Source: Candidatus Moanibacter sp.
Lineage (GTDB): Bacteria; Verrucomicrobiota; Verrucomicrobiia; Opitutales; UBA2987
DNA: 16,225 nt
Direction: 5' to 3'
Assembly: GCA_965215885.1 (NCBI GenBank)
Contig: CBDCEW010000005.1
Coordinates: 1 to 16,225, forward strand
The notes beneath the pieces were generated by a model. That model ran no database searches and was not told the origin of the DNA. It saw nothing but the letters and a program-made list of their open reading frames with translations. Shown here piece after piece: positions 2,040-13,305 of the stretch. Position numbers and translations under genes: made by a program. Every line of letters starts with the position of its first letter. Positions within the stretch are counted from its first letter, which is position 1.

Positions 2040-3422
2040 ATGAAAGACAAAAAATCTTACCAACTGAATCCTTCGATAGATCGTTTAACTCTGCGTCTGG
2101 TCCTGCCCGAAGAGCAGGAGCGATTCAATGATCTATTGAAACAACATCATTATTTACACAGTGCGGGCAGCGCAGGAGAGACCCTGCGCTATGTGGCGCA
2201 GATCGACGGGCAATGGATGGGCCTGCTCTTGTGTGGGGCCGCATCCTACCGGCTGAAGGATCGAGACGAATGGATCGGGTGGGACGGGGCGCAACGGCAT
2301 GCACGATTGAAACTGGTAGTACAGAACCGGCGTTTTCTGATTTTGCCCTGGGTGGATCTTGCAAATTTGGCCTCCAAGACGTTGGGTATGTGCCTGAGAG
2401 TCTTAGCCGATCACTGGCAGGAGGCTTTTGGCTATCGTCCCTTAGTAGCGGAAACGTTCGTGGACCCACAGATTCACCGGGGCACTTGCTACGAAGCGAG
2501 CGGGTGGACGCCCTTGGGCTTGAGCGCGGGATATGGCCGCCAACGCGAAGATTTCTATCAACGCCATGAGCGTCCCAAGCAGATCTGGGTCAAACCCCTC
2601 AAGGCTAATGCCCTTGAGCTTTTGCGCGCTTCAGGGCCATTGCCCGCGGCACAGAGCCAGGCGCTCAATGAAACCGATAACTCCCATGCGGTCTGCCTCA
2701 AAGTGGAACAGATGAGCAGCCTGTGGGAACGCTTCAATCAGATAGAAGACTTCCGTCGTAAAGCGGGCCTTAGATATCGGCTCGCCACGGTCCTGAGCAT
2801 GATTGTGCTCGGCACGATGTGCGGCAAACAGACCCTCAAGGGCATCGTGCGCCTGGCCCATCATCTCAATCAAGCCCAATTGCGCGCCTTACGCTCCTGG
2901 AAAAACCCCAAAACAGGCCGCTATAAGGCCCCTTGCTATGATGTCTTCTATCGGGTCTTGCAAAACGTAAAGGCCGAGCTCTTCGATAAAACCCTCACCG
3001 AATTCATCTGCTTACAAGACGGCTGTTTGCCCCGCGATATTGCCGTCGACGGCAAGACCCTCAAAGGCACAAACACCGAAGAATCAAAGGCTCTGCACCT
3101 GGTGGCCGCAGTCGATCACCAAAGCGCTCAAACCTTAGCCCAAGTCGCTACCGCCGATAAATCCAACGAGATCACCGCCGCCCAGACTCTCTTGCGAAAG
3201 ATGCCCATTTTGGACGGCTCCACCTTCACCTTCGACGCCATGCATAATCAAAAAGAAACTGCCCACATCGTCGTCGAAGAACTCAGTGCTGACTATGTTA
3301 TTCAAATTAAAGACAATCAGCCCAACATGCATCAATACGCTCAGAATCTCTTCAGCTCCACCCCCTTTTTCTCCACCAAACCGTGGACAATGACCATGGG
3401 CGACTCGAAATACGTCAAATAG
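2040..3422 (+). CDS. ISAs1 transposase ORF A: DUF4338 (DruA-like) domain + DDE-associated domain + first part of the DDE core
   Basis: DUF4338 motifs HHYL…LRYVA, RDEWIGW, NRRFLILPW, NLASKTL, ETFVDP…GTCYEASGW. ISAs1 motifs DFRRKAGLRYRL, IAVDGKTLKG, KSNEITAA, TFDAMHNQKE, DYVIQIKDNQP. Confidence 0.9.
   Translation: MKDKKSYQLNPSIDRLTLRLVLPEEQERFNDLLKQHHYLHSAGSAGETLRYVAQIDGQWMGLLLCGAASYRLKDRDEWIGWDGAQRHARLKLVVQNRRFLILPWVDLANLASKTLGMCLRVLADHWQEAFGYRPLVAETFVDPQIHRGTCYEASGWTPLGLSAGYGRQREDFYQRHERPKQIWVKPLKANALELLRASGPLPAAQSQALNETDNSHAVCLKVEQMSSLWERFNQIEDFRRKAGLRYRLATVLSMIVLGTMCGKQTLKGIVRLAHHLNQAQLRALRSWKNPKTGRYKAPCYDVFYRVLQNVKAELFDKTLTEFICLQDGCLPRDIAVDGKTLKGTNTEESKALHLVAAVDHQSAQTLAQVATADKSNEITAAQTLLRKMPILDGSTFTFDAMHNQKETAHIVVEELSADYVIQIKDNQPNMHQYAQNLFSSTPFFSTKPWTMTMGDSKYVK
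3361..3370 (+). other. Candidate programmed slippage/frameshift site CCCCCTTTTT
   Basis: Lies in the overlap of ORF A with the -1 frame, which is open from 3311. It falls between the KDNQP motif (frame 0) and the HGRLEIR motif (-1 frame). Confidence 0.6.
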
Positions 3423-8239: not shown

Positions 8240-10279
8240 GTGCGTCGATTCGTAATTTCCCTGACCCTGCGCCTGGCCGCCGGCGCCCTGGGCTTCTTTC
8301 TAATATTCCAACTCTATACCCGCCTCGCGTTCAAAGTGGCTGGGGCCGGCCGCACCGACGTGGCGGCTCTGGCCGCCCTGCCTTCCCCCCAGCGCCATCC
8401 CGCCCAACCCGGCGCCCTGCACCGTGTGGCCGAGTGGTCCGCCACAGTGCCCCGCGCCTTTTCCCAAGCGCCCCAGCTGGCGCGTCTCGAGCTTCCACCG
8501 GTGGACCAACGTTTGCCGGTAGAACCCCTGGTCGTAATACCCCCACACCAGGAAGGACCCTACGGCGGAACGTGGAAGCGCTTTGGCACCAGTCCGGCTG
8601 ATATTGGCACGCTGCCCGCTCGTCTGGCCTACGAGGGTCTCGTGCGTTGGGGACCCATGGGTCGTGAGATTCTCCCCAACCTGGCCACCCAATGGGAAAT
8701 TGCCGATGAGGGGCGGACCTATACCTTCACCTTGCGGCGGGGCGTGCGCTGGTCTGACGGCCATCTTTTTACGACCGCCGACATCATGTTCTGGTACGAG
8801 CACATCCTGCAGAACTCGGACCTCACCCCTGTGGTGAACAGCGAACTCCGCCACGGTGGGCAATTGGTCCAGTTGGAGGCGCCGGACGACTACACCATCC
8901 GTTTCCACTTCGCCGCTCCCTACGGCCTCTTTCTCAAAGTCCTCGCTTCAAATTTCACCTACATCGTCGATTATCCGGCCCATTTCCTGAAACAATACCA
9001 TCCCGCTTTTGCTCCGCAGGCTGAACTCGATCGCCTGGCCCACCGGGAGGGTTTCGATTTCTGGTATCAGGTGTTTGACGATCGCGCTGAGTGGCAAAAC
9101 CCCGACACGCCGCGCCTGTGGGCCTGGACCATGGAGCGTCCGCCACTCGCCAGACCGGTCGTCTTCACCCGCAACCCATATTACTGGAAAGTCGATCCCT
9201 CGGGCCGTCAGCTTCCCTATATCGACCGCGTCACCTTTGAAATCTACGACATCGAGACGATCAACATCAAAGCCATTAACGGCGAGGTGGGAATGCAGGG
9301 CCGCCATATCAGCTTTCAGAACTACCCCCTCTTCATGACCAATCGGGCCAAGGGCGGTTACCGGGTGCACCACTGGATCGACGGAAAAGCCGGTTCGTCC
9401 GCCCTCGCTTTAAACCTCAACCACAAGGATCCGGTCCTCAGATCCCTCTTCCACGACCGCCGTTTTCGCCTGGCGCTATCCCAGGCCCTGGACCGGGAAG
9501 CCATCAATGAGGTCTGCTACATGGGTGTGGGCCAGCCGCGACAGATGGCACCCCCACCGGGCTCGGCTTTTTATGACTCCGCCTATGAACGGGCCTATAT
9601 CGAATACGACCCCGATGAGGCCCGCCGCCTGCTCGATGCCATGGACCTCACCCGCACTGACCACCGGGGTCGCCGTTTGCGCCCCGACGGGAAGCCGCTC
9701 ACTCTGCGACTGGAGACCTCGTCCACCTTCGGAGGGACCAGCCGCCTCTTTGAAATGGTCGCCGCCTATTGGACGGCGGTGGGGGTCGAGACCAAGGTCA
9801 AAACCATGGCTCGCGAGCTCTTCGAAGAGCGGATCAACGCCCGCCTCTTCGATGTGACTTCGTGGATCGGGTCGGGCGAGATAATACCGGTGATCGACCC
9901 GCGCTGGTTCCTGCCTTACAATGGGGGCTCGTTCTACGGACTGGATTATGTGCGATGGTTCCGCACTGAGGGCGTCGAAGGCGCGCGGCCTCCTCCTGCC
10001 ATGGTGCAGTGCATGGACCTGTTCCGCCAGGTCCAGAGGGCAGTGGACGACGCCGAGCAGATCCGCCTGTTCCGCCGGATCATCGACCTGAACCGGGAGA
10101 ATCTTTGGGTCATTGGGACCGTCGGCCAGGTTCCGACGATCTTCATCGTGCATGAGTCCTTCCGCAACGTGCCTGAAGTGGCGGTGGCCTGCTGGCCCTT
10201 GCGTACGCCGGGAGCGACCGCGCCCGAGTGCTACGCAATCGAGGAAGCTCCTTCCGCATTCCATGGAGAAGAGAATTGA
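8240..10279 (+). CDS. ABC transporter substrate-binding protein, family 5 (OppA/DppA-like, probably oligosaccharide-binding clade)
   Basis: Motifs LPPVDQRLPVEPLVV, GPYGGTW, PNLATQWEI…YTFTLRRGVRWSDGHLFTTADI, RNPYYWKVD…QLPYIDRV, FRLALSQALDREAI and YDPDEARRLLD. GTG start. Confidence 0.93.
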   Translation: MRRFVISLTLRLAAGALGFFLIFQLYTRLAFKVAGAGRTDVAALAALPSPQRHPAQPGALHRVAEWSATVPRAFSQAPQLARLELPPVDQRLPVEPLVVIPPHQEGPYGGTWKRFGTSPADIGTLPARLAYEGLVRWGPMGREILPNLATQWEIADEGRTYTFTLRRGVRWSDGHLFTTADIMFWYEHILQNSDLTPVVNSELRHGGQLVQLEAPDDYTIRFHFAAPYGLFLKVLASNFTYIVDYPAHFLKQYHPAFAPQAELDRLAHREGFDFWYQVFDDRAEWQNPDTPRLWAWTMERPPLARPVVFTRNPYYWKVDPSGRQLPYIDRVTFEIYDIETINIKAINGEVGMQGRHISFQNYPLFMTNRAKGGYRVHHWIDGKAGSSALALNLNHKDPVLRSLFHDRRFRLALSQALDREAINEVCYMGVGQPRQMAPPPGSAFYDSAYERAYIEYDPDEARRLLDAMDLTRTDHRGRRLRPDGKPLTLRLETSSTFGGTSRLFEMVAAYWTAVGVETKVKTMARELFEERINARLFDVTSWIGSGEIIPVIDPRWFLPYNGGSFYGLDYVRWFRTEGVEGARPPPAMVQCMDLFRQVQRAVDDAEQIRLFRRIIDLNRENLWVIGTVGQVPTIFIVHESFRNVPEVAVACWPLRTPGATAPECYAIEEAPSAFHGEEN

Positions 10280-10538: not shown

Positions 10539-11612
10539 ATGACTAACTTGGTCCTTAAACGCTTTTACTGGATGGTGCCCACTTTGTTGGCAATCTCCTT
10601 CCTCTCTTTCGCGCTCATCCAATTGCCTCCGGGAGACTATCTGACTTCCTATATCGCGGCATTGGAAGAACAGGGAGAACCTGTGGCCGAAGAGCGGGTG
10701 GCAGCCTTGCGCCATCGCTTCGGTCTGGACCGGCCTTTTTTGCTGCAATACATCCTCTGGCTCAACAACCTGTTACCCTTCGGCTTTGACCGACAGGAAG
10801 GCGGCGGCTACCTGCGGCACGGGGACGGAGTTTTCAATTGGCCCCGGTTCAAATGGCCGGACTTGGGCTTTTCCTTTGAGTGGAACCGACCCGTGGGTGA
10901 GCTGATCGGTGAGCGCATCCTCCTGACCATTGTCATTTCCATCGCCACCATTCTCTTTACCTGGGCCCTGGCCATCCCGATCGGTATCTATTCGGCGCTG
11001 CGCCAGTACTCCTGGGGCGATTATTGCTTCTCTGTCCTGGGCTTTGTTGGCTTGGCTACGCCCAATTTCCTTCTGGCTCTCATCTTCATGTACCTGGGTT
11101 ACTCATATTTTGGCATAAGCCCCGGCGGTCTGTTCTCCCCCGGCTACCAGGAGGCCCCCTGGTCCCTGGCTAAATGTGCCGATCTGCTGGCCCATTTGTG
11201 GATTCCGGTGATCGTCATCGGCACCGAAGGAACTGCCGGACTCATCCGAATCATGCGGGGCAATCTGCTGGACGAGATCCCGAAGGAATATGTGCAGACG
11301 GCACGGGCCAAGGGCGTGCACCCGGTCAGATTGATTCTCAAGTATCCGGTGCGCGTGGCCTTGAATCCCCTCATCAGCACCGACGGGTGGTTGCTTCCCA
11401 GCATCGTATCCGGGTCGGTGATCGTCGCCGTGGTCCTTGGTTTGCCCACCACCGGTCCGCTCTTGCTGCGCTCGCTACAGAGCCAGGATATGTATCTGGC
11501 GGGGTCGATGATCATGATTCTGAGCTTTCTGACGGTGATCGGAACCCTCGTTTCGGACCTACTCCTGCTGTGGCTCGATCCGCGCATCCGCTTTGAAGGA
11601 GGAGGCCGGTGA
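10539..11612 (+). CDS. ABC transporter permease, DppB/OppB-like
   Basis: Motifs IQLPPGDY, FGLDRPFLLQY, DLGFSF, IPIGIYSA, EAA-loop region RGNLLDE…YVQTARAKG and SDLLLLWLDPRIR. Confidence 0.95.
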   Translation: MTNLVLKRFYWMVPTLLAISFLSFALIQLPPGDYLTSYIAALEEQGEPVAEERVAALRHRFGLDRPFLLQYILWLNNLLPFGFDRQEGGGYLRHGDGVFNWPRFKWPDLGFSFEWNRPVGELIGERILLTIVISIATILFTWALAIPIGIYSALRQYSWGDYCFSVLGFVGLATPNFLLALIFMYLGYSYFGISPGGLFSPGYQEAPWSLAKCADLLAHLWIPVIVIGTEGTAGLIRIMRGNLLDEIPKEYVQTARAKGVHPVRLILKYPVRVALNPLISTDGWLLPSIVSGSVIVAVVLGLPTTGPLLLRSLQSQDMYLAGSMIMILSFLTVIGTLVSDLLLLWLDPRIRFEGGGR

Positions 11613-11619
11613 TGGGGAT

Positions 11620-11709
11620 GTCATTTGCGCCTTTCGGCGCGTCAAAGGCTGCCTCCGGCGGTGTCAGTGACGCCATTCCGGCGCGTCATTTGGCGCTAAC
11701 GCGCTGTTA
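11620..11709 (-). repeat. Left array: 4 units of GTCA-NNN + variable hairpin (TGAC + hairpin when read on the - strand)
   Basis: GTCA at 11620, 11641, 11663, 11685 and GTTA at 11706 (spacing 21, 22, 22, 21). Hairpins on the + strand: GCGCC-TTTC-GGCGC, GCTGCC-TCC-GGCGGT, ACGCC-ATTCC-GGCGC, GGCGC-TAAC-GCGCT. Confidence 0.85.
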
Positions 11710-11738
11710 CATAATGAAGAAATTGAAGGGTATGGAAA

Positions 11739-12098
11739 ATGAAACTTGAGGAGTTAGAGGTTTATCAGATGGGAATGGAGATTGGCGATCAGGCGTGGTC
11801 AATTGTTCAGAAATGGAATTACTTCGCGAAAGACGCAGTGGGCAAGCAACTAATAAAAGCCGCAGATTCTATTGCGGCCAATATCAGTGAGGGGTACGGC
11901 CGTTACTATTACAAAGAGAACAGGCAGTTCTGCTACTACAGCCGCGGCGCGGCTTTCGAAACCCTTACATGGATTACGAAGGAGAAGAATCGAAAACTAA
12001 TTTCCGAGCTGGAGTTCAGTGTTCTCAAGAAGGACCTTAACACATTTATCATCAAGCTCAACCGCTATATCCGATCGATCGGCCCCACCGATGACTAA
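11739..12098 (+). CDS. Four-helix-bundle protein (TIGR02436 / 23S rRNA IVS protein / Avd-like family)
   Basis: 119 aa with family motifs LEELEVYQ, KQLIKAADSIAANISEGYGR and FCYYSRGAAFETLTW. Visibly more AT-rich than the flanking permeases. Confidence 0.93.
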   Translation: MKLEELEVYQMGMEIGDQAWSIVQKWNYFAKDAVGKQLIKAADSIAANISEGYGRYYYKENRQFCYYSRGAAFETLTWITKEKNRKLISELEFSVLKKDLNTFIIKLNRYIRSIGPTDD

Positions 12099-12234
12099 TG
12101 AGAACTGACGCGAACGCAGTGAGCTTTGACACGTCGATAGGCGCCCATGACGCGAACGCAGTGAGCCAATGACGATGAGCGAAGCGAATTCAATGACGCT
12201 GCCGGAGGCAGCCAATGACGCCCAGGAACTGGGC
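12089..12234 (+). repeat. Right array: three tandem 7-mers (NNNTGAS) followed by 6 units of TGAC + variable hairpin
   Basis: TGAC/TGAG at 12092, 12099, 12106, 12127, 12148, 12170, 12194, 12216 (spacing 7, 7, 21, 21, 22, 24, 22). Hairpins in order: GCGAAC-GCA-GTGAGC, ACGTC-GATA-GGCGC, GCGAAC-GCA-GTGAGC again, GATGAGC-GAA-GCGAATT, GCTGCC-GGA-GGCAGC, GCCCAG-GAA-CTGGGC. Confidence 0.88.
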
Positions 12235-13305
12235 TCCCTCTCCCAGTGGCAGCTCATGAGGCTGAGATTTCGCCGGCACCGCCTCGCGGTATGGTCCGGA
12301 TTTATTGTATTGGCTTTTTACCTTGTAACCCTTTTCTGTGAATTCATCGCCCCCTACTCCCTTGCCGACCAGCACATCACCCATCTTTACGCTCCACCCC
12401 AACCGGTGCGCTTCATTGGGTCCGACGGCCTCCACTTGCGACCCTTTGTCTACGGTCTCAAGGGCGTCCGCCACCCTCAGACCCTGCAAAAACTGTATGT
12501 CGAGGACCGGAGCCAGTTCTATCCAGTGCGATTTTTTGCTGAGGGACCGCGCTATCGCCTGTGGGGCCTGATCGATTCCAATCTCCACCTTCTAGGCGTC
12601 GATCCGGGCGGGACCCTGTTTCTCTTCGGCACCGATTCGCTGGGCCGCGACCTGTTTTCCCGTATAGTCTACGGGGCACGCATCTCGCTTACGATCGGTC
12701 TTATCGGGGTGGCGCTTACATTCGTCTTCGGCCTGACTGTGGGTGCGGTTTCGGGCTACTTCGGTGGCTGGCTCGACAATCTAATCCAGCGCTTCATCGA
12801 GATCCTGCGCTCCTTTCCCACCATCCCCCTCTGGATGGGCCTGTCGGCAGCCCTCCCGGTCACCTGGTCGCCGCTGCAGATTTACTTTGGCATTACCGTA
12901 GTGTTGTCCTTTTTGGGTTGGACCGGTTTGGCCCGGGTCGTGCGCGGCAAGATCCTATCGCTGCGCGAAGAAGACTACGCCACCGCCGCGCTCCTGGCCG
13001 GGGCAAACCGCACGCGTATCATACTGTTCCACTTGTTGCCCGGCTTTACCAGCCATATCGTCGTGAGCGTGACTCTCGCGCTACCCGGTATGATCCTGGG
13101 AGAAACCGCACTCAGTTTTCTCGGACTCGGGCTGCGTCCGCCCATCACCAGTTGGGGCGTATTACTGCAGGAAGCGCAGAATGTACAGGCTGTGGCCCTC
13201 CATCCCTGGCTCCTCACGCCGGCTCTCTTCGTCATCCTGGCGGTCCTGGCCTTCAATTTTGTCGGGGACGGTTTCCGCGACGCAGCCGACCCCTACGCCA
13301 ATTGA
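12169..13305 (+). CDS. ABC transporter permease, DppC/OppC-like (start uncertain: ATG 12169, 12175 or 12193, all inside the repeat array)
   Basis: Motifs SQWQLMRLRFRRHRLA, LFGTDSLGRDLFSRIVYGARISLTIG, ARVVRGKILSLREEDY, ETALSFLGLG…SWGVLL and FNFVGDGFRDAADP. Confidence 0.95.
   Translation: MTMSEANSMTLPEAANDAQELGSLSQWQLMRLRFRRHRLAVWSGFIVLAFYLVTLFCEFIAPYSLADQHITHLYAPPQPVRFIGSDGLHLRPFVYGLKGVRHPQTLQKLYVEDRSQFYPVRFFAEGPRYRLWGLIDSNLHLLGVDPGGTLFLFGTDSLGRDLFSRIVYGARISLTIGLIGVALTFVFGLTVGAVSGYFGGWLDNLIQRFIEILRSFPTIPLWMGLSAALPVTWSPLQIYFGITVVLSFLGWTGLARVVRGKILSLREEDYATAALLAGANRTRIILFHLLPGFTSHIVVSVTLALPGMILGETALSFLGLGLRPPITSWGVLLQEAQNVQAVALHPWLLTPALFVILAVLAFNFVGDGFRDAADPYAN

Follow-up and report, generated by a model that had tools for sequence, protein, structure and literature searches.

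The window analysed here, the whole 16,225-nucleotide contig CBDCEW010000005.1 of Candidatus Moanibacter sp. (C5 of a 105-contig, 6.36-Mb assembly), carries a small gene for a 119-amino-acid four-helix-bundle protein of the intervening sequence protein (IVP) family (11739 to 12098, + strand; 23S_rRNA_IVP, PF05635, TIGR02436), and the ten short hairpins that surround it are the two arms of a cassette that sits at the junction of an oppB-like and an oppC-like permease gene. Each arm is a row of a subfamily-specific word, (A)ATGAC, facing away from the gene, and in the window locus and a minority of its relatives the 3-nucleotide spacer between words is expanded by a GC-rich module with a C(GNA)G triloop at its tip. 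In the direction leading away from the gene, the loops of these modules begin with G and end with A (G..A loops), and this polarity is real, specific to the AATGAC cassette subfamily, and equal in both arms. Hairpin-bearing arms of this kind, in which C(GNA)G-capped modules are added to an inverted-word-array cassette, are new: our literature search, in which few papers were looked at in depth, returned no title or abstract start on repeat or hairpin arms around PF05635 genes, and the family is still termed functionally uncharacterised in a recent preprint (bioRxiv 10.1101/2024.02.27.582315). From the sequence we tentatively favor, at somewhat less than even chances, a reading in which the modules act at the DNA level, as a single strand or as small extruded hairpins, together with the word and on behalf of the cassette.

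The right arm (12106 to 12234, + strand) has six words, with TGAC at 12106, 12127, 12148, 12170, 12194, and 12216, and six hairpins on the + strand: R1, GCGAAC-GCA-GTGAGC (12110-12124); R2, ACGTC-GATA-GGCGC, with a single T.G pair (12131-12144); R3, again GCGAAC-GCA-GTGAGC (12152-12166); R4, GATGAGC-GAA-GCGAATT (12174-12190), which holds the exact heptamer GCGAAGC at 12179-12185; R5, GCTGCC-GGA-GGCAGC (12198-12212); and R6, GCCCAG-GAA-CTGGGC (12220-12234). The left arm (11620 to 11704, - strand) has four words, visible on the + strand as GTCA at 11620, 11641, 11663, and 11685, and four hairpins, read here on the - strand: L1, GCGC-GTTA-GCGC (11693-11704), which holds an exact GCGTTAGC; L2, CGCC-GGAAT-GGCG (11671-11683), for which an alternative stem pairs 11668-11673 with 11683-11688; L3, ACCGCC-GGA-GGCAGC (11648-11662); and L4, GCGCC-GAAA-GGCGC (11627-11640). 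Every one of these hairpins comes directly after a TGAC word (mostly AATGAC) that is oriented away from the gene, four on the left and six on the right. When the sequence was re-read, all ten loops were as the first-pass annotation of this DNA had listed them: nine of ten are G..A loops, nine of ten are closed by C-G, and six of ten are triloops, on stems of 4-7 bp. A 42-nucleotide internal duplication covers R1-R2 and R3 (repeat family D1, spacing 42 and 46).

By nearest-neighbor models with DNA parameters, the only clearly stable units are R5, R6, L1, L2, and L4, which score -5.0 to -6.8 kcal/mol; R5, R6, L1, and L4 fold as first drawn, and L2 folds instead as a TGACGC/GCGTCA stem. R2 is weak, and the three units with tandem G.A mismatches reach -0.5 to -1.3 kcal/mol. 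The minimum free energy z-scores of whole arms, also with DNA parameters, are modest: -2.7 for the + strand of the right arm, and -0.6 (+) and -1.4 (-) for the left. Since only about half of the units are stable and the arm z-scores are modest, the signal lies in the regular design of word plus hairpin and not in bulk folding energy.

Three right-arm stems contain 5'-GA/3'-AG tandem mismatches, which the first-pass annotation had taken as sheared pairs; the letters are there, but their pairing is not secure. The sequence itself is kept: GCGAAC-NNN-GTGAGC occurs in the window (twice), in its paralogue on contig C90 of the same assembly, and in locus L102, and ATGAGCGAAGCGAAT is shared by the window and a Caldithrix metagenome-assembled genome (MAG; L027), all of these in right arms. 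In the orthologue of genome G492, CTGAC-GCGAACGCA-GTCAG stands in place of the first unit, so that the word would pair with its own inverted copy in a perfect TGAC/GTCA stem, and the second C90 unit has one A.G mismatch only. We found no convincing tandem G.A unit in left arms, where the two matches obtained were both spurious.

The loop polarity extends well beyond the window. Relatives of the 119-amino-acid protein (36-68% identity) were collected from three sources: species genomes, of which 168 encode a relative and 80 were kept; metagenomes, of which 205 encode one and 80 were kept; and genomes of the same phylum, of which 17 of 401 have a match, the window's genome included. Removing 23 near-duplicates from 178 loci left 155, including C5 and the C90 paralogue, and hairpins were detected blind to strand as Watson-Crick stems of at least 4 bp, with at least 3 G/C and loops of 3-5 nucleotides. 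On the outward strand of these loci TGAC occurs 1032 times versus 208 for GTCA, and in 94 of the 155 each arm carries two or more outward words. The commonest spacer between words is 3 nucleotides (161 cases on the left, 154 on the right), which amounts to a 7-nucleotide period, and the hairpins are additions of 7-13 nucleotides placed directly after TGAC. Among word spacers of 11-30 nucleotides, 41 of 162 hold a perfect hairpin of at least 4 bp, versus 9.7 +/- 2.7 (maximum 17) in 200 shuffles.

Read outward, the loops of the 155 loci comprise 48 G..A, 2 T..C, and 48 others, with G..A to T..C counts of 28:0 in left arms and 20:2 in right arms; both T..C cases are 5-nucleotide loops (L031 and L179). 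The strand bias that the first-pass annotation had predicted for homologous arrays is thus present, against a genome-wide background of hairpins after TGAC that shows none (113 G..A versus 109 T..C of 1648; an earlier genome scan with perfect stems of at least 5 bp missed the window's own arms and was redone for this count). Of the 48 G..A loops, 46 are triloops (GAA 28, GCA 10, GGA 5, GTA 3) and 44 are closed by C-G, and they sit on 28 different stems in 14 loci. The exact heptamer GCGAAGC is found outward 48 times, in 32 loci, versus 6 times for GCTTCGC. The two arms are statistically equal, with 529 and 535 words and 22 and 21 G..A spacer hairpins. Thirty PF05635 loci of other subfamilies from the same phylum, examined as a control, are mostly plain inverted word arrays and give 7 G..A, 3 T..C, and 47 other loops.

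These numbers also bear on whether the hairpins do anything for the cassette. They could be passengers, tiny selfish or mutational insertions comparable to the small dispersed repeats of cyanobacteria or to modules resembling repetitive extragenic palindromes (REPs), which land in one direction after TGAC, so that the polarity would mirror an insertion mechanism and not a cassette function. Most relatives do have plain 7-nucleotide word arrays with the 3-nucleotide spacer, to which the hairpins look like small additions right after TGAC; stems of at least 4 bp with G..A loops occur in only 14 of the 155 loci; and TGAC-plus-hairpin rows with no gene exist on contig C38. We nevertheless regard this as unlikely, because the genome has no dispersed high-copy family of such units, with only unbiased background outside C5, C90, and C38; because the module type recurs beside one gene subfamily in MAGs labelled Planctomycetota, Verrucomicrobia, Desulfobacterales, and Calditrichaceae (Scalindua being among the labels of hairpin-bearing loci); and because the 30 loci of the control lack a comparable excess of G..A loops.

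A few array variants were seen alongside these counts. The two gene-less rows on C38 lie at about 69930-69975 and 70070-70135, some 140 nucleotides apart, with loops AAA, GCA, and GAC; each is preceded by GACTTT/GACCTG-type words, and they could be cassette remnants or solo arms. Modules of the form GCGC-GAA-GCGC or GCGTAGC/GCGGAGC are present in a few IVP loci with other word types (L252, L244), and in L116 two word-and-hairpin arrays of opposite sense abut, as if two cassettes or arms were nested.

Stems vary freely from module to module, whereas the word, the placing of the hairpin, and the G..A loop sense stay the same, which suggests that the modules are selected as local stem-loops read from one strand. 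In keeping with this, the covariation that the first-pass annotation had suggested looking for was found in one local compensatory change between the paralogues, CCCAG/CTGGG in C5 and CCGAG/CTCGG in C90.

The identity of the loops is what points to DNA. The loop class is that of the published DNA mini-hairpin consensus GCGNAGC/GCGNNAGC, which favors DNA-level structure, and the first-pass description of GNA triloops as unusually stable DNA mini-hairpins agrees with the portions of that literature used here, in which GCGAAGC and GCGAAAGC melt as DNA at 76.5 C versus 39 C for r(GCGAAAGC) (PMC13037366). The same portions describe DNA mini-hairpins at single-stranded DNA (ssDNA) priming sites, namely in G4, as GCGTTAGC in the complementary-strand origins of St-1 and alpha3, and as CCGAAGG in ssiA of RSF1010, and in the promoter of the virion RNA polymerase of phage N4, with a 5-bp stem and a GGA or GAA loop (PMC13037366). 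The window modules share with these the loop class, the closing pair, stems of 4-7 bp, and a strand-specific sense, and R5 has a core, CCGGAGG, similar to those of the ssiA and N4 hairpins. They differ in that the known mini-hairpins are single and proven in priming or transcription on ssDNA, whereas those of the window come in tandem, each following a word, to either side of a gene and are known from sequence. Selection at the RNA level would be expected to favor GNRA tetraloops, and only 2 of the 48 G..A loops are tetraloops; with C(GNA)G triloops being the optimum of DNA and not of RNA, action as DNA is the most likely reading. A further consideration is that the arms of C5 and C90 lie largely in open reading frames, so that stable hairpins in RNA would be melted by ribosomes.

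The two-fold symmetry of the cassette is another point for DNA, since either DNA strand bears GNA-capped hairpins 3' of the gene. If the modules do act as DNA, they might act on a single strand, or as small hairpins extruded from supercoiled DNA, and with the word could serve the cassette's protein or a host factor as structure or recognition signals when the cassette is maintained or moved. A bolder version, which we consider quite improbable, is that IVP cassettes work via ssDNA, with the arrays of word and C(GNA)G hairpin serving as priming or recognition signals of the ssi or N4-promoter type and either released strand being copied. Were that so, the hairpin arms would give a first visible sign of how cassettes without a transposase, and by extension rRNA intervening sequences with an open reading frame (ORF), are moved or maintained. 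The strict family-wide strand sense of DNA-type triloops offers in any case a cheap handle on the question of DNA versus RNA action and on the protein's target, and it extends the still short list of biological roles of GCGNAGC mini-hairpins by a natural example that recurs.

Several observations weigh against action at the DNA level. A mirror polarity is built into the inverted-arm design and is therefore not independent evidence for DNA. Of the first-pass argument for selection on ssDNA or cruciform DNA, the polarity and the DNA-type loops stand, but the step drawn from favorable left-arm loops on the non-mRNA strand fails alone, the arms being inverted copies of each other. The DNA (Mathews 2004) and RNA (Turner 2004) parameter sets of ViennaRNA score GAA and TTC triloops identically, and because of this the energetic case for DNA comes solely from the literature. 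The energies of single units differ little between the outward and the inward strand, except for L3, which owes a better fold on the + (mRNA) strand to two G.T pairs (-8.2 versus -2.8 kcal/mol, RNA parameters). Counts of G.T versus A.C mismatches on the outward strand (3 G.T and 6 A.C on the left, 4 and 10 on the right), in which many stems are probably spurious, give no consistent strand signal. In the other IVP subfamilies, as the 30 control loci show, the inverted word arrays are almost free of hairpins. The 48 G..A hairpins are also concentrated, with all of them in 14 loci and 23 in just three (L140, L148, and L041), and relatives are not independent; the per-locus figure of 14 loci versus 2 is safer than 48:2.

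The remaining points on this side concern pairing between the arms and the sense of transcription. When 11600-12245 is folded as one strand, the left arm is predicted to pair with the right, with 65 pairs under RNA parameters and 63 under DNA parameters, and the predicted energy gain from this pairing is -36.9 kcal/mol versus -8.5 +/- 2.2 with a shuffled right arm (mononucleotide shuffles); a gain beyond shuffles is obtained in 12 of 12 chosen loci, hairpin-type and word-only alike. For 30 of 48 units (16 of 28 on the left, 14 of 20 on the right) the other arm holds a copy with at most two mismatches. The arms being inverted and mutually complementary, one might be kept passively, as the complement of its partner. 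Where flanks were callable, cassettes point the same way as their neighbors by 80:5 upstream and 51:5 downstream, which means that they are always transcribed in one sense.

The predicted inter-arm stem would fit an RNA stem like that of rRNA intervening sequences equally well. In this alternative, a function in RNA, the arms would pair in the operon transcript, as in ORF-bearing intervening sequences (IVSs) of 23S rRNA, and the stem would be processed, for example by RNase III, or would insulate the inserted gene; the right-arm units would be the functional array, a protective or protein-binding one at the 3' side, with the left arm kept as its complement and mirroring the loop sense automatically. 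The arm pairing, the shared units, and the co-orientation all speak for this, as do the G.U-type pairs of L3 on the + strand and the confinement of the sequence-conserved tandem-G.A units to right arms. PF05635 proteins, moreover, were first found in rRNA IVSs, and the IVS of Coxiella burnetii, which is excised by RNase III, has been described as a selfish element (parts of PMC4990558). We consider a function in RNA possible but rather unlikely, because 46 of the 48 loops are GNA triloops and not the GNRA or UNCG tetraloops that RNA favors, and because a functional right arm with a passive left one predicts a stronger right arm, whereas the arms are equal in words and hairpins. Furthermore, 12 of 28 left units have no close partner in the right arm yet all keep perfect stems and the G..A sense, and the matching units of C5 are out of colinear order (L3 resembles R5, and L4 resembles R2). 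An inter-arm stem also has no need of self-complementary units, which is a point for local hairpins, and the arms lie within open frames in both C5 and C90. In one metatranscriptome (X20), covered as assembled contigs only, an exact contig of 11412-11619 stops where the left arm begins, with no cover over the cassette; this is a weak hint and counts as evidence neither of processing nor of absence.

The comparison with the IVS of C. burnetii, which encodes S23p, can be drawn further. Both have a PF05635 protein encoded by a small promoterless ORF between complementary arms able to form a long stem, which in the window is a prediction. Unlike an IVS, the window cassette lies between two permease genes of an mRNA operon and not in helix 25 or 45 of 23S rRNA, and its arms are oriented arrays of words and mini-hairpins where those of an IVS are a simple stem. 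Leptospira also has ORF-bearing intervening sequences in its 23S rRNA. The window has the layout of a cassette with inverted word arrays, the IVP gene lying between mirror-image arrays of its own word and the other copies in the genome having other words. A second family of comparable layout is that of REPs and their paired form, REPINs, in which a conserved tetranucleotide, GTAG, and an imperfect GC-rich palindrome are arranged in inverted orientation around a gene for a REP-associated tyrosine transposase (RAYT) and are thought to act as ssDNA hairpins. The window likewise has units of tetranucleotide plus palindrome inverted around a gene, but its central gene encodes a four-helix bundle and not a Y1 (IS200-like) transposase, its tetranucleotide is TGAC and not GTAG, and its units are not dispersed in hundreds, with only C5, C90, and the two C38 rows standing out.

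The first-pass annotation had also drawn a parallel to diversity-generating retroelements (DGRs), and part of its background holds: in the sections of the literature drawn on here, the DGR target of Bordetella phage BPP-1 has a single-copy GC-rich DNA hairpin or cruciform with a 7-10-bp stem and a 4-nucleotide GRNA loop on the sense strand, beside the variable repeat (VR) with its initiation of mutagenic homing (IMH) site and the reverse transcriptase, the hairpin is required, and a swap of GAAA to CTTT abolishes function (PMC3240598). PF05635 also resembles the DGR accessory protein Avd, as far as sections of a second source describe it (PMC10053308), and the window has GC-rich hairpins with G..A loops on one strand next to an Avd-family protein. 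It is nonetheless extremely improbable that the window hairpins direct homing by an Avd-like protein and a reverse transcriptase, in the manner of the signals found where a DGR variable repeat ends. The window has no reverse transcriptase, and the genome has just two RVT_1 matches, on C92 and C37, contigs that hold none of its 14 PF05635 matches. No direct repeat of at least 40 nucleotides occurs in the window, which leaves no pair of template repeat and VR, and there are ten short hairpins with 4-7-bp stems on both sides of a gene in place of one 7-10-bp tetraloop hairpin after a variable region. No Avd chain in the PDB was matched by the protein alone (E up to 0.01) or by a 14-sequence profile (E up to 1). 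With these elements missing the parallel falls, and all that is left of the analogy is a hairpin in DNA with a sense on one strand.

The oppB/oppC junction is a hot spot, with intact and gutted cassettes of differing word type in paralogous or related operons. C90 carries a 90%-identical paralogue at the same junction, with 6-7 left units and 4 right units; C94 has a different IVP gene, with CGAGTT-type words, at the same junction of a paralogous operon; and G492 has there a gutted IVP gene with GGAGACG words (L224, C3:802500-807000). The closest orthologue (L195, also in G492) retains a right-arm remnant without a gene, beside a rearranged upstream region with a long inverted repeat. Four sequencing runs were covered, all as contigs, and in X3 and X4 contigs join 11602 to 12229, skipping the whole cassette, with only 24 letters on one side and 85% likeness; this joint is no evidence of absence, since it may stem from another organism with a related operon.

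Junctions free of an insert were seen only in operons of the same order that are more distant (L201, L205, and L211), and there the oppB stop overlaps the oppC start (ATGA or GTGA). In the window, GTG 11609, at the position of the ancestral oppC start and overlapping the oppB stop, opens a 46-codon frame through the left arm (11609 to 11749, + strand; translation is inferred) that stops 8 nucleotides past the ATG of the four-helix-bundle gene, and the C90 counterpart has a like frame of 71 codons ending in an ATGA overlap with the gene start. On the other side, the longest oppC frame begins at an ATG inside a right-arm word (12169, with a second in-frame ATG at 12193), so that the last two or three right-arm units would encode an N-terminal tail of OppC ahead of the conserved SLSQWQL; the C90 paralogue has the same oppC frame, from a GTG inside a word. 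With the left-arm frame and with oppC ATGs in AATGAC words, the cassette seems set up for translational coupling at either end. At 12198-12259, the R5 loop and 3' stem also spell GGAGG 7 nucleotides before an out-of-frame ATG at 12215, whose 14-codon frame ends in an ATGA overlap with the in-frame oppC ATG at 12256; this arrangement is not conserved in C90.

We dropped, as a general rule, the notion that outward words form arrays of stops in three frames. Of the arms of AATGAC loci, 35 of 92 on the left and 7 of 77 on the right are open throughout on the + strand, the - strand giving the mirror pattern, and in 30 diverse PF05635 loci outward stop trinucleotides are not enriched (81 versus 135 on the left, 115 versus 126 on the right).

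The window's genome has 14 PF05635 matches, each with its own flanking word, for example of the CAGTG-, GGACTAAGTG-, and AAGCTTACGACG-types, and some of the copies are tandem two-domain fusions of 214-242 amino acids. In the 30 loci of the control, too, words go with the type of gene. Across the phylum, PF05635 is present in 164 of 251 sampled genomes, with up to 16 matches per genome. The 119-amino-acid protein itself (pI 8.6) matches PF05635 at 1.1e-22 (80.6 bits versus a cut-off of 33.8) and TIGR02436 at 6.9e-22 (77.7 bits versus a cut-off of 24), and PF05635 is the only Pfam family it matches. The lone sequence has no match in the PDB (E up to 0.01), and a profile of 14 relatives matches two structural-genomics entries, 2gsc at 2e-08 and 2rld at 0.0031. 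An Rfam scan of 11400-12400 gave no rRNA or other family at gathering score, and a match to PinT was rejected as chance (23.5 bits versus a gathering score of 60).

By domain searches, the operon around the cassette runs, in order, from a solute-binding protein gene of the same ABC transporter (8240-10279) through the oppB-like permease gene (10539 to 11612, + strand; PF00528 at 1.1e-25 and PF19300), with its TGA stop at 11610-11612, and the four-helix-bundle gene to the oppC-like permease gene (12169 to 13305, + strand; PF12911 OppC_N at 4.6e-15 and PF00528). The remaining genes of the window are ordinary, with a TonB-receptor plug, a DDE transposase, a glycosyl hydrolase, and an aminotransferase. 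In the ORF at 2040-3422, an N-terminal DruA-like region (PF14236, 2.1e-27) is joined to a DDE transposase (PF13808 and PF01609).

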